A stretch of 64,000 bases of DNA from Longimicrobiales bacterium (GCA_965238005.1 OZ250165.1:2112001-2176000); one strand, 5' to 3'. Positions 2,426 to 63,735 are shown, counted from the first letter of the stretch. Numbers and translations are program-made. Notes: a model not told the origin generated them from the letters alone.

Positions 2426-3652
2426 CTACGGCCCGACCACGACTCCCTCTTTGATCACGGACCGGCACGGGTTCGTGCCTATCCAGTAGGCCAGCTCTCG
2501 CGGGTGGCTCACGTCCCAAAGAGCCAGATCTGCACGCTTTCCCGGCTCCAAGGTGCCGATGTCTGCCCCCAGGTCCAAAGCCAATGCAGCATTCCTCGTC
2601 ACACCCGCCAGGGCCTCCTCCGGAGTCAGCCGGTAGAGAGTGCAGCCCATGTTGAGGATGGTGAGGAGTGAGAGGATGGGAGACGAGCCGGGGTTGGCGT
2701 CGGTCGCCAGGGCCATGGGCACGCCGTGCTCCCTGAGCGAGCTCACCGGAGGCGTGCGGGTCTCACTCAGATAGTAGAACGCCCCGGGAAGCAACACGGC
2801 CACGGTCTCCGCTCCGGCCATCGCCCGGACGCCATCCTCGGACGCGTACTCGAGGTGATCGGCCGAGAGGGCCGAGAAGCGGGCTGCCAGGGCCGCGCCC
2901 CCCGTATCCGACAGCTGGTCAGCGTGGAGCCTGATCGGAAGCCCCAGGTCGCTGGCCGCCTGGAAGAACGAGGCGCACTCGTCGGGTGTGAATGCGATCC
3001 CCTCGCAGAAGGCATCGACCATGTCCACCAGACCGTCCTCCACGGCCGACGGCAGCAGCTCCCCCACCACGAGAGCCACGAAGTCGTCGCGCCGTCCGTC
3101 GAACTCGGGAGGGAGGGCGTGGAGAGCGAGAAGCGTCGTTCTGACGGTGAGCGGGAGTCTCTCACCGACGCTTCGTGCCGTCTGCAGCATGCGTAGCTCG
3201 GTGGCGACATCCATACCGTAGCCGGACTTGATCTCGAGGGTGGTGACACCCTGGCGAAGCAGCTCGCCGGCCCTCGCCACGGCTCCGGCTTCCAGCTCCT
3301 CGGACGTGGCCTCCCGGGTCGCCCGCACGGTGGAGCGGATGCCCCCCCCGGCGCTGGCGATCTCGACATAGGTGGCGCCCTGCAGGCGAGCCTCGAACTC
3401 GTCGGCCCTGTCCCCTCCGAAAACGAGATGGGTATGGCAGTCGATGAGCCCGGGGGTCAGCCAGGCGCCCCCGGCATCGTGTACCTCGGTTTCGGGGCCC
3501 ATACCACTCGCGGGTAGCTGCGACCTCGGCCCCACCCACTCGATCTTCCCGCTGGTCGCGGCCACGGCACCGTCAGGCACCTCTCCGTAGGCGGCGCCGC
3601 CGCTCCGCATGGTGGCGACCTGGCTATTCAGCCAAACGCTGTCGAATGCCAA
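2426..3652 (-). CDS. hutI: Imidazolonepropionase
   Basis: PGLIDCHTHLVFGG, EIKSGYG, LHADQL, SADHLE and ATDANPGSSP motifs; hut cluster; TTG start inferred. Confidence 0.95.
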   Translation of the reverse strand: MAFDSVWLNSQVATMRSGGAAYGEVPDGAVAATSGKIEWVGPRSQLPASGMGPETEVHDAGGAWLTPGLIDCHTHLVFGGDRADEFEARLQGATYVEIASAGGGIRSTVRATREATSEELEAGAVARAGELLRQGVTTLEIKSGYGMDVATELRMLQTARSVGERLPLTVRTTLLALHALPPEFDGRRDDFVALVVGELLPSAVEDGLVDMVDAFCEGIAFTPDECASFFQAASDLGLPIRLHADQLSDTGGAALAARFSALSADHLEYASEDGVRAMAGAETVAVLLPGAFYYLSETRTPPVSSLREHGVPMALATDANPGSSPILSLLTILNMGCTLYRLTPEEALAGVTRNAALALDLGADIGTLEPGKRADLALWDVSHPRELAYWIGTNPCRSVIKEGVVVGP

Positions 3653-25060: not shown

Positions 25061-25097
25061 GATGGAACCTCCCCTGCCATTCTCGCGGTTGCCGGCT

Positions 25098-25304
25098 TCA
25101 CCCATCGGCTCCGCGCACCCTCTGGGCATGATCGAGCCGAATCTCGAGCTCCTTGTCGGTGAGGCTGTCTAGCTCGGCTAGGCGGTGCAGCAGCGCGGTA
25201 CGCCGGTCGCCGCCACGAATGAAGACGACCTCCATCCCTAGCCCACGAATCAGCACCCAGACCTTGCCGTCCCTCGGATCCGTCCAGTTCCGCGTGCGGT
25301 CCAT
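25098..25304 (-). CDS. Small 'WTDPRDGK' family protein (copy 1)
   Basis: MDRTRNWTDPRDGKVW...LDSLTDKELEIRLDHA; similar to five other ORFs in the window. Confidence 0.7.
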   Translation of the reverse strand: MDRTRNWTDPRDGKVWVLIRGLGMEVVFIRGGDRRTALLHRLAELDSLTDKELEIRLDHAQRVRGADG

Positions 25305-25308
25305 GCCT

Positions 25309-25531
25309 TCATCTCTTGGCCTCGTCGAGGAGGCCCTGCAGCTCTGCGTCGGAGCGATCCTCGAGTCCGACCTCGAAGTCCACCTCGATGCTGTAGTGCT
25401 CGCCCTCTTCGGCCGCGAACAACCAGCACGTCCCGATCTCCTCGATCGAACCAGAGCATCCAGTAACTGCCGTCGCGGCGATCGAACCACCCGCGCATCG
25501 GAGTTACCGTTTCGTCAGATGCTTCAGGCAT
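25309..25531 (-). pseudogene. Small 'WTDPRDGK' family protein (copy 2), +1 frameshift
   Basis: Near-identical DNA to the intact 63514..63735, with an extra base near 25420. Confidence 0.7.
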
Positions 25532-25734: not shown

Positions 25735-25809
25735 CGGTCCCGCGGCTTCGAGAATGTCACTAGGCTGGAAGTCGTCTGGCCCTGCCCTCGCTCGCCAGCC
25801 TCACCGCCC

Positions 25810-26130: not shown

Positions 26131-26325
26131 CTACCCCCTGGCCCGATCCAGCAGCGCTTCGAGCTCGTTGTCGGTCACGTCGGCAAGCGGCGTATCCGAT
26201 CGCACCTCCGCCGTGAACTGCTTGCCATCCGCCGCGAACGCCAGCACTCCGCGCCGCTCACCCCGTTCGAGCCAGAGCAGCCAGTGCTTGCCGTCCCTCG
26301 GGTCGGTCCAGTCGCGGTGGGTCAT
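26131..26325 (-). CDS. Small 'WTDPRDGK' family protein (copy 3)
   Basis: MTHRDWTDPRDGKHW...LADVTDNELEALLDRARG. Confidence 0.72.
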   Translation of the reverse strand: MTHRDWTDPRDGKHWLLWLERGERRGVLAFAADGKQFTAEVRSDTPLADVTDNELEALLDRARG

Positions 26326-49403: not shown

Positions 49404-51076
49404 CCAGAAAGGGCCTCCGGCCCACAGCGCGCAGCCGGTCTGAACCCGCACACGGACTGACGGCAACCATGCGCAAGACCAGCACTTTGATCCGCTTCCT
49501 CGGCCCCCTCGCCATGGTGGTTGCCGGCACGGCTCCCGTCGCGGCGCAGAACTCCACCACCACCGGCCAGATCCGTGGCGGCATCGTGAACGAAGGTGGC
49601 CAGCCCGTGGCATTGGTGGTCGTGACGGCGCGCAACACCGAGACCGGCCTCACCCGGACGGCGCTCTCCAACGCAGACGGTCGGTACACCGCCCGGCTCT
49701 TGCCTTCGGGTACCTACGAAGTGCAGACCGAGATGATCGGGTTCGGCCAGGCCACGCAGACGGTTCGAGTGGCCATAGGAACCTCGAGCCTGGCCAACTT
49801 CGGGCTCACCAGCCAGGCCATCGAGATCGAGGGGATCACGGTATCGGCGGACCGTCCCCCCATCGACGTGAGCGACGGCGGCGTCATCCAATACGTGGGC
49901 CAGCTGGAGATCCAGGAGCTCCCGGTCCTGGGGCGTGACTTCACGGACTTCATCAACCTGTCGGGCCTCGTCGCGCCCGACCCGGGAGTGACCACTGGCG
50001 GGCAGTTCTCCATCGCCGGCATGCGCTCCTCCCAGACCAGCATCCAGATCGACGGCGTGGACGCCAACAACTCGTTCTTCGGTGAGAACCGGGGTGGGTC
50101 CCGGATCCCCTTCGTCTTCTCCCTGGAATCCCTCAAGGAATTCCAGATCATCACCAACGGCTTCGACGTGGAGCACGGCCGCTTCGGAGGCGGGATCATC
50201 AACGTGATCACGCAGGGTGGAACCAACCAGTTCAAGGGGAGCGCCTACGCCAACATCCGAGACGACGCCCTGACGGGGAGTCCGTTCATCCAGGACGACA
50301 CCAACCCGGAGATCACCACGGAGTACGAGGTCCAGCAGTTCGCCGGCTCCATCAGTGGGCCGATCAAGAGGGACAAGGCGTTCTTCTTTCTGTCGGTGGA
50401 CGGTCAGCGACGCCGCGAGCCGCAGCTACCGCTGACCCAGGAGCGCTTCGGGCCCGGTGGGTCGGCCGAGGACCCGGTGGTGTTCAATGAGATTTCGGAG
50501 TACTTCGACATCCTGTCGAGCCAGTACGGCGTCTCCGATCCGGCCGCAGTATATCAGCCCTTCTCGACCACGGAGGACGCGATCACGATCTTCGGTCGGA
50601 TCGACTGGAACCTGAACGACGATCACCGGCTGTCGGTGCGGCACAACTACTCGACGTTCACCAACGACAACGAATGGAACGGGAACTTCGACTTCGCCTA
50701 CGGGATCTCCCGGGCCGAGAAGCTCGAGGACGAGTCCCATTCGTTCGTGAGCGAGCTCCAATCCGTGCTCGGAGACAACACCTTCAACGTGCTGCGGGCG
50801 CAGTACGCGAAGGAAACTCGGCCCCGTCAGGCCAACGACCTGCGGCCGGCCCTGCAGGTGAGCCTCTCGAACAACCAGCGGATCGAATACGGAGGCTCCT
50901 TCGCGGCATTCAACAACCGGTTCGAGGAGACCAAGTTCCAGGTCGTGGACAACTTCACCCACGTCCTGGGCGACCACACGTTCAAGGTGGGGGGCAACTT
51001 CCTCTATACGCAGTACCTCAATCAATCCCTCCGTTGCGAAATTCGTTCCCACCTGCGAACCGTGAAAGGCCAGTAA
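49394..51076 (+). pseudogene. TonB-dependent receptor (carboxypeptidase-regulatory N-domain, Oar-like), C-terminally truncated near 51030
   Basis: TTGQIRG, LPVLGRDF, IDGVDAN, GGGIINVIT and HTFKVG motifs; only about 545 aa, with the barrel ending abruptly at an inverted-repeat element. Confidence 0.82.
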
Positions 51077-53988: not shown

Positions 53989-54370
53989 GGTGCACCACCT
54001 TCGTGCGGGTGTTTCTCCGAAGTGGACGCCTGCGGCTCAGCTTCGCGCTCGATGGCGTAACGGCCTTCGAGGGCGGCGTTCAAGCGCACAACTGGATCGG
54101 ACACGGGCTGCACTCCGGGATCAGACCGCGTTCAACATCCGAGAGCGAGCCGGTAGGCGCAAGCAGAAGCCCTGTCAGACGCCTGCAAACACGTTCTGAG
54201 CGTGTTCGGGGTTTATTCGGTATCCTGGGTAGGCTGGAGCGTCCTCGTGGCCTAGAGGGCCGTTAACGGCCCCGTCCCATCACCGCCTCATCCAGCTCCT
54301 CCACCCTCACGTGGATCTGCTCCGTCCCCATCCCGTGCAGCTGCACGAAGCTCAGGATCGGACGCGGGGG

Positions 54371-54772
54371 TCACTCGCCGAGGTTGTCCACCTGATCGTC
54401 CACCGTTCGCTGGAGGATCCTCACATACTTGGCGATATCCTCAGGCTTACGACAGTAGGCTAAGACGCCCAGCTTCGAGGCCAAGTCGGCATCGAGGTTC
54501 TGAAACGCGGAGAAGACGACTACAGGGACCTCCTTCAGCACCTCCTGGCCTCGGAGCCACTCGAGGAACTGGTATCCCGACATCTGAGGCAGACTCAGAT
54601 CGACGAGCAACAGATCCGGAACGCCATCTCGCGACAGGTGATCCAGATGCTCAATGGCGGCTTCACCGGCGTCAAACACCCGAACCTCGGTGCCCGGTCC
54701 CCCGACTTCGGCCACCGCCTTCTCCATCAAGAGGGCATCACCCGCGTTGTCCTCGACGATCAATACCAGCAT
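54371..54772 (-). CDS. Single-domain response regulator
   Basis: LIVEDN, PDLLLVDLSLPQMSG, VVVFS and KP motifs. Confidence 0.85.
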   Translation of the reverse strand: MLVLIVEDNAGDALLMEKAVAEVGGPGTEVRVFDAGEAAIEHLDHLSRDGVPDLLLVDLSLPQMSGYQFLEWLRGQEVLKEVPVVVFSAFQNLDADLASKLGVLAYCRKPEDIAKYVRILQRTVDDQVDNLGE

Positions 54773-54850
54773 TGTTCCCTCCGCTAAGAGTCTGCGATCT
54801 TGTATGCTCCACGGTTTGGGCTTACGGGTGGCCGGCCTCACCCATCATCA

Positions 54851-55210
54851 TCATCCGCTGGCAACTGCATTCGCGACGGCCTCGAGGAGCTCTTCGGGGT
54901 CGACCGGTTTGCTGAACGCGGCGAGGACGCCCAGGGCCTGGGCCTGAGCAAGGAGTTCCGTCCCCTTCCCAGAGACGGCGATGATCGCCGCCTCCGGATA
55001 CAGCGCCAGCAGAGACTCGATCAACTCCAGCCCATCGACGTTGGGCATGTGAAGATCGGTGACGACGACGTCGATGTCCTGCTTTCGGTACGTGCTCAAA
55101 GCCTTCTCGCCATCACTGGCGAAGTAGGTCTCGTGACCTGTTCCCTCGAAGATGGAATACAAGAGGAGGTGATCCGCAAAGTCGTCTTCGACGATCAGTA
55201 CTCGTGCCAC
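54851..55210 (-). CDS. Single-domain response regulator
   Basis: LIVEDD, DVVVTDLHMPNVDG, IIAVSG and KP motifs. Confidence 0.88.
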   Translation of the reverse strand: MARVLIVEDDFADHLLLYSIFEGTGHETYFASDGEKALSTYRKQDIDVVVTDLHMPNVDGLELIESLLALYPEAAIIAVSGKGTELLAQAQALGVLAAFSKPVDPEELLEAVANAVASG

Positions 55211-55254
55211 GGTGTAACCTCCGCTCCGTTCGGTCCGTGGCCAGCTTCAGCCAT

Positions 55255-55680
55255 CTACTCGATTACCCACGTGTACTTATCGCCGGAGGTCCACTTCGGC
55301 GTACCTAGCATGTCCAGAAGCGTTAGGCCGAGTTCGCTATCCGAAGTAACTACGGTGACCCCCACCTCGAAGGGGGTGCCTCCCCAATTGTCGAAGTCCA
55401 GAACGTAGTTCTTCTTCGTGAACTCGAACCCGCCGGGAAGGTAGGCGGCGAGCCCAGGTGGGATGACACCCGAGGCTACCTCAGAGGGCCAGTCGTTTTC
55501 CTCGTTCTGATACGCGTATGCGGCGACCCGAACGACCTCCATGTCGCCTAGGGCCGACGCCGCCCGGGCCTTCACGATGACTTGGGAGATCCTGGGTTGA
55601 GCGATGGCCGCCAGGATGCTGACGATCAGGACCACGACGGTCAGCTCCACCAGGGAGAACCCTCTGCGATCGCTCGTCAT
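55255..55680 (-). CDS. Type IV pilin / prepilin-type protein
   Basis: RRG|FSLVEL prepilin cleavage/methylation motif followed by a hydrophobic helix. Confidence 0.88.
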   Translation of the reverse strand: MTSDRRGFSLVELTVVVLIVSILAAIAQPRISQVIVKARAASALGDMEVVRVAAYAYQNEENDWPSEVASGVIPPGLAAYLPGGFEFTKKNYVLDFDNWGGTPFEVGVTVVTSDSELGLTLLDMLGTPKWTSGDKYTWVIE

Positions 55681-56183
55681 GATGTCCGCCCTCCGGAAAC
55701 CATCTCCTTGGCGTTGGCCAGGAGGTCTTCCACGGGCTGGGTGGATACGTACTCGACCGTCACGCCCCCGACCTCACCATGGAGCCGGAACGTGGAGCCG
55801 ACGAGTGGGAAGTAGCTCACCCCCTCCGCTACGTCGCCGGTGTCCTCGAGCGTGGCCGGCAGCCGCCCGTGGTCAGTCATGTACTGCTGAATACGAGTGA
55901 ACTGCAAGTACATCTCGATCCTGAGGCCTGCTTCTTGAAGCGCTACCGGCACTTCCGGAGGGGGGACCGGTTGAAGGACCTCCGGTGGGAAAACCCAGAG
56001 CCAAAAAGATATGATCGCCAGAATGGGAGCTACCACAGGATGCATCCTACGGTGGGATCGGCGCGTGGGCGCGTCCGCCTGACGCTGAGCATGGTGCGCA
56101 ACATCCTCCAAGACCTCCTTCAGGGTGTCCCGGTACTCGTCGCTGCCCTTTCCCTCGCCGTTCTCCACTCGTCCGCCCTTCAC
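55677..56183 (-). CDS. Hypothetical membrane protein coupled to the pilin
   Basis: One TM segment; GRLPATLE motif; 4-bp overlap with the pilin gene. Confidence 0.65.
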   Translation of the reverse strand: MKGGRVENGEGKGSDEYRDTLKEVLEDVAHHAQRQADAPTRRSHRRMHPVVAPILAIISFWLWVFPPEVLQPVPPPEVPVALQEAGLRIEMYLQFTRIQQYMTDHGRLPATLEDTGDVAEGVSYFPLVGSTFRLHGEVGGVTVEYVSTQPVEDLLANAKEMVSGGRTS

Positions 56184-56279
56184 TGGTGTTCCTCGGCAGG
56201 AGAAGTACCTGCTCCTGATTCTATCGCTGGCTCCAGATCAGGAGCAAGTGAATCCCTGCCCTTCTCGCGGTTGGGGGCT

Positions 56280-56864
56280 TCAGGTATCCTCTTCCACGCC
56301 TTCCTTGCGTTCTCTAAGCCGCTTCAGATACTTGGGCTCGCCGAACGGGTGAGGTGGGAGTATCGGAAGATCGTCGCCGAACACCACCTCACCCTCCAAT
56401 GGGCCAGGCTTTTCACCACCGCTTTCGACCAGGGCCGCCACCAGGGCCGGAAGTACCTGGCACGCGAACGCGGCCTTCGCTTTGATCTCTCGGACGAACT
56501 ACTCCCGTCTCCCGACCAGATCTTGTCGGTTGGCTGAGTACCAAATATTGCCCTCTTGGACATCCCTCAGCTGTGCTTGAAAGTCGGCAAGTGCCTTAAC
56601 AGTCTTCACGTCGAATATGTGGACCTCTGCCACAAGAGCAGTCAGCGCCGGATGACGGAGGTCGTCGTATGCGCTCGGTCCCTTCTCCACAATCTCCCGC
56701 AGGATGCCGTCCAGCCATCGGAGTTCCGCCAATGCCGCGGTCGAAAGGAGCTGACGTCGGGCCGTCGACTCAATCTTCACCCCGACTCGGGAGAGAATGA
56801 ATCCCAGTCCGGCACCTAACAGCAGAATGAGGATGTCGCGAAACTCAATAAGGAGTTCAACCAT
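56280..56864 (-). pseudogene. Hypothetical membrane-anchored protein with an internal in-frame TAG (56499-56501)
   Basis: The frame stays open 72 codons past the TAG (FVREIKAK...EEDT*) and ends inside the junction motif. Confidence 0.55.
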
Positions 56865-56922
56865 CAGGTCCTCGAGCGGTTGCCGGCTTCAGACATCCGG
56901 GGCACCATAGTCACGGGCACCG

Positions 56923-58029
56923 TCAGGCGCTCACGTCCACGAGCGCCTCGCCCAGGACGTCGGGGCGGGGCTCCACGCCGAGGCCCGGCGACTCGGACGC
57001 TCTCATGCGGCCGTCCTGGCGCTGGGGCGCACCGTCTGCCGTGCTCACCGTGACGTAGCTGTTGAAGTCCGTGGCGGTGAACAAGAACTCCGGTAAGGTG
57101 CTGTGGGCCAGATGGGCGATGGCGGCCGTCGTGACGTCGCCACCCCAGGAGTCCTCCAGGGTCATGGCGATCCCCATGGACGTGCACAGGTCCCTGGCCT
57201 GCCTGGCCTTCGTGAGGCCACCGAACTTGCTGATCTTGATGTTGACCACGTCCATGGCCAGGTCGGCATGACCCCGCAGGAGGGCTTCCATCCCGTCGAT
57301 GCTCTCGTCCAGCACGAAGGGGTGGTCGGTACGCCGCCTGATGGAGAGACACTCCTCGTAGCTCAGGCAGGGCTGCTCAATGTAGACATCCACGTCACGG
57401 ACGCCCCGCACCACCCTGGCGGCGGCGTGGGGCAGCCAGCCGGTGTTGGCGTCGGCGATGAGGACGTCGCCCCGCTCGAGCACTGCGGCGACGGCCCGGA
57501 TCCGCTCGATGTCCTCCTCGGGGTCCGCGCCGACCTTCAGCTGGAATCTGCGGTACCCCTCGTCCCGGTACCCGGCCACGCGACCCGCCATGGCCTCGGG
57601 GCTCTCCTGGGAGATGGCCCTGTAGAGCACGAAGTCCTCTCCGTAGCGGCCACCCAGGAGCACGCACGCGGGCTGTCCCGCGACCTTCCCCAGGATGTCC
57701 CAGCACGCCATGTCCACGGGTGACTTCACGTAGGGATGGCCCTTCAGGGCCGCATCCATGGAGTGATTCAGCTTCCCGAGTTCCGTGGGATCCATGCCCA
57801 TGAGGTGGGGCCCCAACTCCTTCAGCCCGGCCCGCACTCCGCCGGCGTAGGCCGGGAGGTAGAAGGCGCCCAGAGGGCACACCTCGCCCCACCCCACCAG
57901 GCCCTCGTCGGTCTCCAGCCTGACGATCGTGCTGTCGAACACGGAGACGGACTTGCCCCCGGACCAGTTGTAGCTGCCCTCGTGGAGGGGCAGGTCGACC
58001 CGATAGGCGGAGAGCCGGGTGATCTTCAT
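56923..58029 (-). CDS. Enolase-superfamily (mandelate racemase/MLE) enzyme, cis-3-hydroxy-L-proline dehydratase-like
   Basis: [40 protein letters not shown] and EDSWG motifs. Confidence 0.85.
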
Positions 58030-58033
58030 CGCA

Positions 58034-58282
58034 TCAGAGGTCCGGGGCTCTCGGCTCATCGATGGTCTGGAGCGCTTCGCCAACCGTCTCCCTCCACCCC
58101 TCAAGACGGGCCTCTAGAGGCGGTGTCACGAGGGCTGAGAAGAGCTCTGCCGCCGCCCCACCTACAAGAGGAATGCTGGATAGCCCGGCACGCGTCACCG
58201 CGTGTGCATGATCACCACCCGAGGTCTCTGGCGGCGTCAGTTCCTCATCGGTTCGTTCTTGGTCCGGCAACATGACCTCCAT
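58034..58282 (-). pseudogene. N-terminal fragment of a hypothetical protein
   Basis: AGLSSIPLVGGAAAELF...PLEARLEGW segment that runs into the next gene. Confidence 0.45.
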
Positions 58283-58521
58283 CGCCCAGCACACAGCCGC
58301 CTTGAGCCATCCTGGTGCCGCGTTTCTTCCAAGTAGCGTGCGACCGGGCGCCCGGCGAGGCGTCACACTTCCGCCACCGGGAGGGGGGCGGCTGGTGACT
58401 TGCTAAAGTTGCTACCTTCCACCTGCTGCTGATTCTACTGCTGGCTCTGGACTAGGAGCAAGCGAATCCCCTGCCTGGTGAACGCGCCGTGACGACCTCG
58501 CCGGCGGCCCGATGAGAACGA

Positions 58522-58943
58522 TCATTCGGGCAGCGTGATTGTCGGAGCCTGCTCGCCCCTGGCGTAGCGCGTCACGTCAATGGCGTCGATGATCAGCGAG
58601 AGGGTGTTCATCAGCATCACCGCTACCAGCCAGGCCCGAAAGCCACCGTCCGCCGGCGCGTCCGCGTAGCGCATCCACAGCCATGGCACCAACGGCACCA
58701 GAATATGTGGCCCAACCCCAGCAGGCGCATGAATCCTTTGGCCTTGAAGATGGCCTCCATCACGATGATCGCCCCAAACAAAGCAGCCACCACGAGCTTG
58801 CCCTCCAGCGAGCCGAAGTAATACAGCCCGCCGGCCAGATTGACGAGGATGAGCACGGCCAGCCAGGCCATCCAGGGCTTGGGCATGTGCAGCATGGTCC
58901 GCATCATAGACCTCTCCCAAGCTGTCGCGAGCATCGCTTTCAT
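58522..58943 (-). pseudogene. Membrane protein with a -1 frameshift near 58699
   Basis: ...GFMRLLGLGHIFW continues as VPLVPWLW...SLIIDAIDV in another frame. Confidence 0.65.
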
Positions 58944-60234
58944 GGCGGTGTCTCCTGTGAAACGCGTTTCGGGAGTGACTTGACCTAAGACCGGGCGACT
59001 CGCGCCACAGGGTGCCCAGGCTCTTCACGGAGTCCGGGGTCTTTTTTTGTCCAAATCTTGTCCAAAACGGTGACCGCGCAGTGCTGATCGACGAGGTCAA
59101 CCACGAACTCGACGAAGCTCAAATCAGAAGCCCGCCTCTCATGCGCTTCCTGGCGGGCTCCCGTGGAGGGATCGGCGGATGTAATGCCCATGACCCCGGT
59201 AATCATCGGGCCGATCTCATCGAACCGCTTTTCCATGAATGCCAGGACAATCCGCGATAGGACGCGAGCTGGGTACCAATCTCTTTCTCGCCTGTTGTAT
59301 TTCCGTCGATCCTCCTCCGCTGGATGCTCTTCGTGACTTTTGGGGCTCATTTCTGCAACATCTCCGATAGAACGGGACTTGAATTGCTCAGGTGATGTGC
59401 TCTCGGTGTAGTGGCCGTGGCAACGGTCGAAGAGGTACAGAGTGAATTACAACCACGGACAAAAGAGCGATCACGAGCATCGTTAGTAGGGCTTGCCAGC
59501 GTTTCATTATCTGCCCCTCGTTTCCTTGTACTGCTTCCACGCATAAGCCCACGCGCCTATGAGCAGGATTCCGACAACGGCCAAGGTCATTTGTCCTCTG
59601 GGTGGAGAGCACGACGGGCACAGCAACTCTTGGCGCAGCCTTGTCCTTCAGAGAAACCGCAGGCGTTGCAGATTAACCACCCGTCTCCCCTGCCAACCCT
59701 GCGCCATCGTGTCTCAAGTAATGCAGTTGTCAGCCTCGCGTTCTCGGCCTCGAGCCTCGTGCGACTTGCTTCGCCGCAACCAATGCAGACAGGTTGCGCT
59801 GAGTCCCGGCGGTGGCTGTAGACGACCACCTGCCAGATGTTGTACTCAGAGGTTAGTGCGCCTGATCTCGAAAACCTTACAGATCACTGCCGCACCGTCT
59901 CACTCCAGAACGGCATCGGCAACTCCCGAGGCTCATCCGTCTCCACTTCGAACTCGTCATGAGCGTGCATCATTTTGAGGAACCAATCGTGCGCTTCACG
60001 GGCGGTGTGGATGCCATAGGATGGGGAGAGCCTGAATGACACACATGTGGGCTCCATGCTGCTATCGGGATACTCGCAGCGGACTGTCAGGCGAGGGGTG
60101 CGAGTCTGCGGCTGAACTGAGCCGAAGCCGGATGCACTCATGCACGAAAGCTATGCCTGACGATGAGGTCGGGGGATGGCTGGATGGGACTACTGCGAGG
60201 CCGCTAGTTATCCAGTTTGCCGACGATCACCACG

Positions 60235-60471
60235 CTAATGTGGTAACCGCACGCGACGTGCACGACGATATCGATTCCTTCGTTTGGGTCCTTCTGCCGT
60301 TCCGATCACAAACGCGGCGAGTTCACCCCAACGGACGGGAGACGGCTTCAATTCTTCGAGAATCTCGTCGGCAGTCGGGCCTCTGAACAGCCCCTTGTGC
60401 CCCTTCTTCGTCTCGTGGTATGCCGCCACAGCACGACGGACGACAGGTTGCTCATCGGGCGTCAAGTCCAT
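60235..60471 (-). CDS. Small hypothetical protein between two ~120-bp repeats
   Basis: ORF exactly fills the interval between repeat copies; no recognisable motif. Confidence 0.4.
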   Translation of the reverse strand: MDLTPDEQPVVRRAVAAYHETKKGHKGLFRGPTADEILEELKPSPVRWGELAAFVIGTAEGPKRRNRYRRARRVRLPH

Positions 60472-60910
60472 GACCGTAAATCTAACGGTACTCCCCCCTG
60501 CCGATGCTGACAGCGACCAGAGTCGAACTCACGGCCTCATGTTTCAGCAGCATGAAGAGTGCGAGTCTGCGGTTGAATCGAGCCAAACCCGAAGGATGCT
60601 ATGCCCCATGCGCTCAAGCTATGGGTGATGCTGAGGTTGGGCGATGGCTAGATGGCACTGATGTGAGGCCGCTAGAAGATATGAAAGGGCTGGCCCAGCC
60701 TGATACTCCTGGCGGTGGTCGTGCTCGTCGCGAAGGATCTCGATCGGGATTGCCCTCGGGGAACGAGCTCGGAGCCTACGGTTCTACTCTGCGTCCATTC
60801 GCGGCCACTCTCCCTCGGTGCGCCCGTCCTCACGAATCCCTCTCTGCCAACTTACGTGAGACACGGAACGCCTAAAGAATTAGAGTAGGGCGAAGGCAGA
60901 GAAACCGAGG

Positions 60911-61360
60911 ATGCTGAGAGACCGAGAGAGAATGAAAGAGAATGGAATAGCCCCACTAACATGGCAGGGTAAGCGAAGCGCGGCAGCCGTCCCGGACCCG
61001 GAGGTCGTGGATAAGCCGCTCCGCCGCCGGTTCGCTCCGTCGTACAAGCTGCGGATCGTCGAAGAGGCGGACCGGTGCACGGAGTCCGGAGAGATCGGCC
61101 GACTTCTACGGCGCGAAGGCTTGTACTCGTCGCACCTGACGACATGGCGCAAGGCGGCGCATAGCGGGTCCCTGAAAGCGCTGTCGAAGAAACGAGGCCG
61201 TAAGCGCGAACGGAATCCTCTGGAGGAGAAGGTGCGCAAGTTGGAGCGCGAGAACACTCGCCTCGAGAAGGAGCTCCAGAAGGCGCACCTGATCATCGAC
61301 GTCCAGGGAAAAGTTGCAGGGCTGCTGGGATTGAGCCTCGAGGACGGAACGCACTCATGA
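60911..61360 (+). CDS. IS3-family transposase OrfA
   Basis: RRRFAPSYKLRI and LLRREGLYSSHLTTWR motifs followed by a coiled coil. Confidence 0.85.
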   Translation: MLRDRERMKENGIAPLTWQGKRSAAAVPDPEVVDKPLRRRFAPSYKLRIVEEADRCTESGEIGRLLRREGLYSSHLTTWRKAAHSGSLKALSKKRGRKRERNPLEEKVRKLERENTRLEKELQKAHLIIDVQGKVAGLLGLSLEDGTHS

Positions 61361-62365
61361 AGGCGACCCAGGAGCTGGCCAAGCATGTAGGGGTGAAGCC
61401 CGCGTGTACTGCGCTCAGGGTCTCCCGAGCCACGTTCTACCGTCGTCGGAGTCCAACGACCGGGCATCAGCAGCCCCGCCCGACCCCCGCCCGGGCCTTG
61501 AGCGAGAAGGAACGAGACAGGGTGTTCGACACGCTGTGTTCGGACCGGTTCGTGGACCGCGCCCCGGCCGAGGTCGTGGCGACGCTGCTCGACGAGGACG
61601 TTCTACCTGAGCAGCGAGCGTACGATGTATCGCGTTCTGGACTCGCGTGAGGCGGTTCAGGAGCGCCGAGCGCAGCGGAGTCATCCCGAATACAAGAAAC
61701 CCGAGCTGATGGCGACGGGCCCGAACCAGGTCTGGTCCTGGGATATCACCCGGCTGCTGGGGCCGAAGAAGTGGAGCTACTTCTACCTCTACGTCATCCT
61801 GGACATCTTCAGCCGCTACGTGCCGGGATGGATGGTGGCGGATCGGGAGAACTCCGCCCTGGCCGGCCGGCTGATCCAGCAGAGTTGCCTGAAGCATGGC
61901 GTCCAGCCCCAGGTCCTGACCCTGCACTCCGATCGAGGGGCTCCGATGACGAGCCAATGCACGGCTCAGCTACTCGCCGATCTCGGCGTGACCCGCTCGT
62001 TGAGCCGACCCCAGGTCTCGGATGACAATCCGTTCTCCGAGACTCAGTTCAAGACCTTGAAGTACCATCCCTCCTTTCCCGGGCGGTTCGGGGATCAGAA
62101 TCAGGCCAAGACCTTCTGTCGCTCGTTCTTCCCTTGGTACAATACCGAGCACCGCCATGGCGGCATCTCGATGCTGACGCCCGAACAGGTCCACTTCGGT
62201 CTCGCCGATCAGGTCATCGCCCGCAGGAAGGCAGTGCTCCGCGAGGCATGGGCCGCTCATCCTGACCGCTTCGTCTCCGGTGAGCCGAAGCCTAAACCAC
62301 TCCCGGAGGCCGTCTGGATCAATCCTCCAAGCCCCACCCTCACTACACAGGAGATTGCTCTCTAA
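61357..62365 (+). pseudogene. IS3-family transposase OrfB (DDE) with a +1 frameshift near 61602
   Basis: PNQVWSWDIT, LHSDRG and DNPFSE motifs; LLDEDV/YLSSERTMYR is broken by an extra base. Confidence 0.82.
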
Positions 62366-62780
62366 TTGTTTCCCCCAAGTGTCTCATCGGGGTTGACAGG
62401 CTCCGAATCGCAGCTGCTATCTGTGCTGGCAACTCGTCCAGTGAGTCGAAGGTCCGTTTGTGTTGATCCACATGGGATAGGTGGTCGATGAACCACTTGG
62501 CCTCTCCTCCACCGTCCTCGTCGAGCTGCCAACTGATGCTCTGGATCTCGCCGCTCATGGGGGCCTCCGGGAGATGTGCAGACTGGAAGACTGGAGGTTA
62601 CGGAGGCCCGGCACTCGCCCGCAAGGAGAGGATGCGGTTAGCGAGAATGGACCCTCTTCTCGGCGCTGTCTGGGGGCACCTAACAGTTGTGAGCGGGACC
62701 GAACAACGAAGAGAGCTCGTTCGGGCCGTGCCAGATGCGGCGGGCGAAGTACCCCCTGCCCTTTCTCGCAGTGGCCGGCT

Positions 62781-63002
62781 TCAGGCATCTCCTCCCAGCT
62801 CTCTCTGCGCCTTATCCAACAGCAACTCGAGCTCCTCGTCGGTGAGGTCGTCTAGCTCGGCTTGGCGGTCCAGCAGCACGGTACGCCGTTCGGGGCCACG
62901 AGTGAAGAAGAGAAGGGACGTGCCAGGGTCCACTCCGAGTCCACACCGCAACCACCACAGCTTCCCGTCCCTTGGGTCCGTCCAGTGTCTAGTGCGTGCC
63001 AT
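62781..63002 (-). CDS. Small 'WTDPRDGK' family protein (copy 4)
   Basis: MARTRHWTDPRDGKLW...LDDLTDEELELLLDKA. Confidence 0.72.
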   Translation of the reverse strand: MARTRHWTDPRDGKLWWLRCGLGVDPGTSLLFFTRGPERRTVLLDRQAELDDLTDEELELLLDKAQRELGGDA

Positions 63003-63045
63003 GCGCCACTCCCCTGCCCTTCGGGCGGTGGCCGGCTTCAGGCAC

Positions 63046-63249
63046 CTACCCGAAGCTCTTCCGCTCGACGATTCCGTTCTCGTGGTGAGTAACGACGACA
63101 CATGGGCGCCCAGAGGCACTCGCGATCTCGTAGGCTCGACTGATCGCGTCCTTCTTCGAACGCTCCTGAAAGACCTCGCCGACGCCTTCGCGGGTCATGA
63201 CCCACTGCCAGCCAATCTGACGAATATGGTATGTGATCCGGTGTGCCAC
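63046..63249 (-). CDS. DUF2188-like small protein
   Basis: YHIRQIGWQWVM...SKKDAISRAYEIA...VVTHHENG. Confidence 0.62.
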   Translation of the reverse strand: MAHRITYHIRQIGWQWVMTREGVGEVFQERSKKDAISRAYEIASASGRPCVVVTHHENGIVERKSFG

Positions 63250-63287: not shown

Positions 63288-63509
63288 CTAGCTACCAGCT
63301 GGGTGAATCCTCTTCGACCGATCGAGCAGCGCCTCGAGCTCCTCGTCGGTGAGGTCGTCTAGCTCGGCTTGGTGCTCGAGCAACACGGTACGCAGTTCGG
63401 CGCGACGAGCGAAGAGGAGAAGGGCCGAGGCCGGGTCCACCCCAAGCCTACGCCTCAGCAGCCAGAGCTTTCCATCCCTACGATCGGTCCAACTCCTCGT
63501 GCGTGCCAT
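63288..63509 (-). CDS. Small 'WTDPRDGK' family protein (copy 5)
   Basis: MARTRSWTDRRDGKLW...LDDLTDEELEALLDRS. Confidence 0.72.
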   Translation of the reverse strand: MARTRSWTDRRDGKLWLLRRRLGVDPASALLLFARRAELRTVLLEHQAELDDLTDEELEALLDRSKRIHPAGS

Positions 63510-63513
63510 GCCT

Positions 63514-63735
63514 TCACCTCCGAGCCTCATCAAGGAGCCACTCTAGCTCTGCGTCGGAGCGATCCTCGAGTCCGTCCTCGAAGTCCACCTCGATGCTGTA
63601 GCGCTCGCCGTCCTCGCCCGCAAACACCAGCACGTCCCGATCTCCTCGATCGAACCAGAGCATCCAGTAACTGCCGTCGCGGCGATCGAACCACCCGCGC
63701 ATCGGAGTTACCGTTTCGTCGGACGCTTCAGGCAT
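63514..63735 (-). CDS. Small 'WTDPRDGK' family protein (copy 6)
   Basis: RGWFDRRDGSYW...LEDRSDAELEWLLDEARR. Confidence 0.72.
   Translation of the reverse strand: MPEASDETVTPMRGWFDRRDGSYWMLWFDRGDRDVLVFAGEDGERYSIEVDFEDGLEDRSDAELEWLLDEARR

Follow-up and report, generated by a model that had tools for sequence, protein, structure and literature searches.

A repeated gene-junction motif in a Longimicrobiales genome as the probable 5' coding end of a fragmented small-protein gene family

In a 64,000-nucleotide stretch from a Longimicrobiales bacterium (GCA_965238005.1 OZ250165.1:2112001-2176000; hereafter the window, with positions counted from its first letter unless the genome is named), arrays of small genes are punctuated by a conserved motif of about 35 bp, which a preliminary description explained as the scar of a gene-capture or shuffling system. 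We find that the motif is probably the start codon and the first 12 codons of a small, unnamed protein-coding gene family. Three observations identify it as the 5' coding end of a real gene family: (i) intact open reading frames (ORFs) begin with it, (ii) clusters of homologous proteins carry it as their N-terminus, and (iii) its DNA copies differ by synonymous changes. Since the break points of the copies are variable, and the motif has no dyad and no conservation beyond that of its surroundings, its distribution is better explained by gene decay and ordinary recombination between paralogues than by site-specific capture.

The host genome is a single contig of 4.84 Mb with 64.8% G+C. A 22-nucleotide (nt) core pattern with up to three mismatches matched the window five times, compared with no match in 100 shuffles, and all five matches are on the minus strand, in agreement with the claim that the copies face one way. 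Using a motif profile built from 13 genome copies, we searched the whole genome with nhmmer and obtained 17 matches at E<=0.02 and about 21 interpretable copies. The copies are confined to seven loci (at approximately 109.5-110.4, 359, 427, 1535.6-1538.5, 2137, 2166.8-2176.3, and 2666.7-2667.8 kb of the genome), and the earlier impression that core-gene blocks contain no full copies holds genome-wide. At each locus, the copies lie on one strand, that of the neighboring ORFs. This restriction to seven co-directional loci, together with the lack of a palindrome, does not agree with a repetitive extragenic palindromic or MITE-type intergenic element. One additional copy lies immediately beyond the end of the window (genome 2176278-2176308). 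In pattern scans, real copies were found at 2 of 16 loci genome-wide and at 6 of 19 loci in a metagenome-wide exact-pattern scan of contigs, the others being unrelated coding matches. The alignment of 19 copies gives the consensus GATGnCTGAAGCCGGCAACCGC-nnn-AAGGGCAGGGG, and no attC dyad is seen in it, as had been reported.

Read from its ATG, the motif encodes M-x-E-A-G-N-R-x-K-G-R-G, and the variable triplet of the consensus is exactly codon 8. Intact members of the family have about 100-120 residues and start with MGEAGNREKGRGYFARRIWHGPDETCWHVWLE...FVQLHGTGTQQIVR. An ORF running for more than 100 codons without interruption (MGEAGNREKGRGYFARRIWHGPDETCWHVWLEAPPTHQFRKGRGATVTFVQLHGTGTQQIVRIIP.VDDQYMTDRALL.LY.SPEPEQ) begins with the motif on metagenome contigs L049 and L055, and contigs L052 and L046/L054 have the same start. 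A protein database search identified 37 clusters at E<=0.001 with lengths of 59-130 residues, none with a Pfam domain, and when 1.84 billion representatives were searched exhaustively with HMMER, 39 matched at the same threshold, many of them as N-terminal fragments joined to unrelated sequence. Among 27 aligned sequences, E/D-A/G-G-N-R stands at the aligned N-terminus of 24, 19 begin at that methionine or valine, and the G, N, and R positions are nearly invariant. At the DNA level, copies differ by synonymous codons (TAC/TAT, CGC/CGT, ATC/ATT, GGC/GGT, and GCC/GCT/GCA/GCG); such changes are common across codons 13-21 and also occur in codons 3-12, as counted over few independent DNA copies. 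Third positions are almost all G or C among the motif copies, and five genome copies (type A) run on as Y-F-A-R-R-I-W-H-G, again with nearly all codons ending in G or C.

No model of this family was found in Pfam, NCBIfam, or PHROGs, and none of 14 small neighboring proteins was matched by PHROGs or NCBIfam. A protein atlas returned only unnamed Gemmatimonadota clusters, all below 0.9, and the family looks Gemmatimonadota-specific so far. AlphaFold applied to the family alignment gave a mean predicted local distance difference test score of 46. The codon-wise variation of a 36-nt translated sequence also bears on an alternative in which the motif is an operator-like regulatory site, that is, an asymmetric protein-binding repeat at gene boundaries, comparable to the stoperators or start-associated sequences (SAS) of phages. 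The motif is indeed asymmetric, has one direction relative to transcription, and stands at stop/start boundaries, and this geometry is the same as that of the 13-bp SAS described in PMC3203893. We nevertheless regard this alternative as highly improbable, given that the motif is translated, that the region is not phage (0 of the 14 neighboring proteins match PHROGs), and that conservation of the motif is not above that of its flanks.

Seven of the eight window copies listed in the preliminary description were recovered, all on the minus strand; the eighth (25779-25806) was not (E>10) and is at most a possible relic. The copy at 25064-25111 (E 1e-9) has an ATG that overlaps the TGA of a gene of the type we call WTDPRDGK after its characteristic peptide (25098-25304), and its 12 codons read through in frame to a receiver gene that starts with GTG. 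Two copies are degenerate: one at 54827-54851 (MGEAGHP*; E 0.54), the more degenerate of the two, lies between two receiver genes, and another at 55211-55260 (E 0.018) is directly 3' of the TAG of a pilin-like gene. The latter and the 25-kb copy share a unit of motif plus receiver gene with 81% identity over 398 nt. The ATG of the copy at 56247-56293 (E 6e-9) is mutated to ATA, and this copy is followed by a promoter-like element of about 80 nt (type B; 56181-56262). At 56872-56899 (E 2e-4), only codons 1-7 of the motif (MSEAGNR) are left, the ATG of ORF 56499-56864 overlaps the stop of this copy (TGATG), and the copy forms one end of a 1.6-kb duplicate. The copy at 62716-62793 (motif match 62746-62793, E 4e-9) continues as type A (YFARRIWHGPNE) and is frameshifted by one extra A; it represents what is left of a family gene as far as about codon 24. 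Finally, the copy at 63008-63050 (E 5e-9) has a GTG start and is found after a DUF2188 gene and upstream of the WTDPRDGK-type gene 62781-63002 (minus strand), whose 3' end, GAT-GCC-TGA, overlaps the ATG of the next motif.

A search with the family profile and tblastn found no intact long-form gene in the host genome. The long form is represented by N-terminal pieces, which are the motif copies, and by three middle pieces. One of the latter (54278-54355) belongs to a middle and C-terminal remnant on the minus strand (LSFVQLHGMGTEQIHVRVEELDEAVM...; 54226-54355) that precedes the conserved leader (54027-54226) of a Ser/Thr-kinase paralogue. The genome copy at 2667794 is a plain internal deletion relative to the intact relative P0059. 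Nearby, at genome 2667700-2667930, two family-gene copies are in tandem, the end of the first (…EELDEALMG) continuing directly into the shortened second (EAPNREKDPRPILSFVQLHGTGTEQIHRRV…). Four partial family matches were found in the same-genus genome G001, none in G002 and G142, and none in 120 other genomes sampled from the order. Thus, the motif is the 5' end of a repeatedly fragmented gene, a case that the preliminary description had named as contrary to its own proposal, except that the gene family is an unnamed rather than a known one.

The genome further contains about ten short WTDPRDGK genes and two 73-residue relatives. In addition to those mentioned above, WTDPRDGK-type genes occur in the window at 63288-63509 and 26131-26325. 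The intact 73-residue paralogue (63514-63735, minus strand) starts with ATGCCTGAAGC (MPEASDETV...WFDRRDGSYWMLWF), and its start overlaps the stop of a DUF2188 gene; this DUF2188/ATGCCTGAAGC junction matches the long-form junction in metagenome contigs L046/L054. Its frameshifted twin lies at approximately 25313-25531. The two additional sites reported for the first 11 nt of the motif (25521-25531 and 63725-63735) are real, and both are start codons of 73-residue family genes. Among nine WTDPRDGK-type 3' ends, six read GAT-Gnn-TGA (or TAA) followed by AGCCGG..., and thus run into at least the first 14 nt of the motif. The motif lies at or on stop codons because the preceding gene often has a GAT-Gnn-TGA end that contains the ATG of the next family gene; in three cases noticed earlier, the TGA of the motif is itself the stop of the upstream gene (25100-25098, 56282-56280, and 62783-62781).

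The WTDPRDGK genes are probably distant paralogues of the long form, judging by shared sequence features. The short and long forms have in common the pattern W-x-x-P-x-x-x-x-W-x-x-W-L, further resemblances are seen between LFFTRG and FVQLHG and between LTDEELELL and MTDRALLxL, and a single bridging protein, P0082, matches the long-form profile at E 5e-5. The genes joined by the motif, described as unrelated, are not all so, several of them belonging to one family. An in-frame peptide, EAGTRNRGRGRG, preceding gene 26131-26325 was considered as well, and it is actually a kinase fragment in another frame.

The boundaries of the motif copies were compared across the 19-copy alignment. A left flank is common to seven pairs of copies, a right flank to nine, and both flanks to two only, one of which is a trivial overlap. 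The right break points fall at codon 5 (two copies), codon 7 (the copy at 56863), approximately codon 10 (three copies), codon 12 (seven copies), and codons 21-24 (the five type A copies), with a total spread of 60 nt. Motif identity between copies is 58-78%, compared with 77-96% for homologous flanks. Predicted DNA folds of four copies, on both strands, have z scores from -1.25 to +0.83 relative to shuffles and no common structure.

These data bear on the proposal that a gene-capture system other than an integron uses the motif for site-specific recombination or insertion, with gene units exchanged there. The mosaic flanks are in its favor, as is a 1617-bp segment with an enolase-superfamily gene (56876-58492, minus strand) that is 99.4% identical to genome 425378-426985 and has one end inside the motif, after AACCGC; the other end of this duplicate is outside the motif, and in G001 the same gene (98% identity) occurs with no motif, similarity stopping 13 nt past the stop codon. 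The motif loci are also in variable regions rich in insertion sequences (IS), and IS transposases of various families are found within 10 kb of all seven. No recombinase recurs beside them, the nearby transposases being of mixed IS families. The earlier statement that no dedicated recombinase is visible in the window needs one correction, as the window does contain a transposase: an IS3-family element on the plus strand (60838-62405; HTH_Tnp_1 and rve, with orfA and orfB separated by a frameshift) interrupts the array. Dozens of 90-93% identical copies of it occur in two same-genus genomes and G142. In relatives the motif is the coding sequence of an intact gene, and in this genome its right boundary varies from codon 5 to codon 24 and it has neither dyad nor fold. 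We consider capture at the motif very unlikely, and the analogy with integron cassettes is likewise not supported.

The genomic context of the motif-bearing stretch weighs in the same direction. Similarity to the same-genus genomes stops at window position 51029 and resumes at genome 2184239, at a tRNA-Gln gene (2184253-2184323), which delimits a strain-specific island of about 21 kb (genome 2163030-2184239; from window position 51030 to about 8 kb beyond the window end). Next to this end, at 2182971-2184167, there is a weak match to a tyrosine integrase. At the strain level, the island breaks at the tRNA and not at a motif. When Logan contigs from four runs were compared with 19 kb of this region, contigs of X1 and X2, from two studies, matched the reference from 54230 to 56905, in reference order across four motif copies. 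No convincing alternative order at the motif was found among these contigs, the candidate joints being short-sided or in known repeats, although the test is weak as contigs break at repeats.

Several observations weigh against decay as the full explanation. There are about 19 copies of codons 1-12, compared with five of codons 13-24 and three of the middle, and random decay alone does not predict this front-end excess. Break points cluster at codons 10-12, and in four copies the G-rich tail GGGCAGGGGAG is at Shine-Dalgarno distance from the next start. The junction of motif and type B element occurs three times in the genome, and metagenome contig L041 joins the motif to the 3' two-thirds of an attC-like site. 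Independent assortment of the flanks requires recombination at or next to the motif. Finally, the comparison of the long form with the WTDPRDGK proteins by hhalign is weak (E 0.014, probability 3%, 57 colinear columns).

Some of these observations would be accommodated if the front end had been co-opted as an expression module, in which the 12 codons are kept as a short upstream ORF or translational-coupling leader. Its start would lie on the preceding stop (ATGnnTGA), and its G-rich tail and own stop would hand ribosomes on to the next gene. The initiation codon (ATG or GTG) is kept in 17 of the 19 aligned copies and a TGA or TAA follows five bases later in 16. The stop of the micro-ORF meets the next start at genome 426969 (GTGA) and at window 56863 (TGATG) and 62755 (ATGA), and lies 3 nt from it at genome 109548 and 12 nt from it at genome 2176273; two copies share their frame with the following gene, and copies of the front end outnumber those of other parts of the gene. 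Overlaps of this kind would, however, be expected by chance, as out-of-frame ORFs in GC-rich DNA usually end at the A/T-richer ribosome-binding region of the next gene. Moreover, the copy at 56254 has lost its start codon, a start codon was never present in those at genome 1535644 and 1538478, and conservation of the motif does not exceed that of its flanks. We regard this alternative as unlikely. The translated leader M-x-EAG-N/H-R, offered earlier as a second interpretation, had the right frame and the right stop/start overlap, but what it describes is the true N-terminus of a protein family and not a free-standing coupling device.

A bolder version, for which we see only a slight chance, is that the 12-codon front end acts as a reusable gene-start module, with its start docked on the upstream stop and a G-rich ribosome-binding tail. 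If so, recombination at the module would have put a receiver, a GIY-YIG-like gene, orphans, a promoter-like element, and an attC fragment under expression of the array, and this would be a capture route with coding sequence as the joint and no dedicated recombinase. The front-end excess, the clustering at codons 10-12, and the type B and attC junctions keep alive a modest chance that the stump has been reused as a leader.

Under the reading that we prefer, decay of a coding family, the family genes form tight arrays on one strand with DUF2188 genes and the shorter WTDPRDGK genes. The long form has decayed in this genome, leaving front ends of 5 to 24 codons and a few middle pieces. Deletions, insertions (such as the IS3 element and the 1.6-kb duplicate), and ordinary recombination between paralogues have probably placed these front ends before unrelated genes. 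The data show directly that the motif is coding, that stops and starts overlap, that the gene is fragmented, and that the flanks are mosaic; we infer that the mosaic arose by unspecialized recombination and deletion, and the leftover front ends would be passive leaders at most.

Several other sequences in and around the array deserve description. The type B element is about 80 nt long and retains TTGCnC-N18-TAGAAT even where its copies have diverged; in L054 it stands ahead of a family gene. A second window copy (58401-58476, minus strand), at the upstream end of the 1.6-kb duplicate, carries only the last 8 nt of the motif (GGCAGGGG). The element appears promoter-like in sequence, and a simple sigma-70 scan did not flag it. 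On the minus strand between 56280 and 56864, two ORFs in the same frame (56499-56864, 121 residues, and 56280-56441, 53 residues) are separated by a single TAG (56501-56499) and represent either a broken gene or two genes. The stretch at 54027-54270 belongs to an abundant repeat of about 380 nt that occurs in both orientations, also at genome 2177184-2177335 and 2177759-2177998 and at about 50 other places. This repeat is the conserved 5' leader and the first 60 or so codons of an expanded Ser/Thr-kinase family (MSDPIVRLNVALQGRYRVERELGEGGMATV...); its depth is about 100 times that of its flanks in four metagenome runs, and on L049 a small family gene is directly upstream of it. In G001, a stretch with a strikingly high A/T content (L027, G001:C1:88200-93300, positions 3143-3340), unlike the rest of the genome, comes after the 98%-identical enolase-superfamily gene, which suggests a foreign insertion.

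A genuine integron is present elsewhere in the genome and served as a control. Its integrase (TIGR02249; 326.6 bits with a cut-off of 265) was found only at genome 3441723-3442649, 1.27 Mb from the window. The integron (genome 3441672-3466140) includes at least 11 attC-like sites downstream of intI on the same strand, with spacings of 278-7421 bp and arms CTAAC...TTGCTGC / GCAGCAA...GTTAGG, two of them beside IS110-type transposase genes. Elsewhere in the genome there are about 19 more dispersed attC-like sites, many without the 5' arm. A profile built from seven sites of the resident integron gave 30 genome matches at E<=0.01; no motif copy is among them, and all lie outside the window, where the best match is a weak relic (60234-60267, E 0.18). 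The attC sites of the real integron are thus unrelated to the motif. At window 60216-60471 (minus strand), a 78-residue ORF of a repeated family is followed by this attC-like relic, and ORFs of the same family at genome 1735782 and 1792849 run into clearer attC-like sites; the window ORF is probably a decayed integron cassette.

Other readings of the motif were tried and rejected. Rfam gave no match in the window at gathering thresholds. As a sigma-54 or extracytoplasmic function (ECF) sigma-factor promoter, the motif was inconsistent between copies when inspected by eye. A sequence resembling an attC R' box, GTTAGGTGCC, stands downstream of two copies, but it occurs only twice in the genome, once inside a coding region. 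A tRNA-derived att site was dismissed, the nearest tRNA being at least 8 kb from any motif copy. Nor is the type B element an attC relic: the attC profile misses it, and a type B profile misses the attC sites.

In place of a candidate new cassette system there is now a concrete explanation, ordinary gene decay. The outcome also defines an unannotated Gemmatimonadota small-protein family that travels with DUF2188 genes and lies ahead of an expanded Ser/Thr-kinase family, and it illustrates that broken front ends of such a family may pass for recombination sites. For work on gene capture in this lineage, the genuine chromosomal integron is the appropriate locus.

Four known systems are useful for comparison. 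Integron cassettes and attC arrays, including clusters of attC sites lacking an integrase (CALIN), also combine small, mostly orphan genes on one strand with a repeated element at gene ends in variable regions; an attC site, however, is a non-coding sequence, an imperfect inverted repeat at which the crossover point is fixed, whereas the motif lies in coding sequence, lacks a dyad, and varies in its boundaries, and the integrase expected beside an array is absent here, the sole one above the cut-off being 1.27 Mb away. The SAS of Cluster K mycobacteriophages and L5-like stoperators are, like the motif, short asymmetric one-way repeats at the boundaries of different gene families, but the SAS are described in PMC3203893 as 13-bp non-coding sites located 3-7 bp upstream of starts in phage genomes, whereas the motif covers 36 coding nt, start codon included, and lies in a chromosomal island. 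Overlapping stop/start pairs (ATGA and TGATG) with termination-reinitiation share with the motif a preceding TGA within or next to the following ATG (ATGnnTGA), and small co-transcribed genes are usually packed in this way (see also PMC6728339 and PMC12548453); in the present arrays 8 nt overlap, and the downstream gene is often a stump in this genome. Pseudogene fragments of expanded paralogous families in IS-rich genomes do not account for the strong front-end excess seen here, but they share with the motif the many partial copies, the mosaic flanks, and the co-location with IS elements.

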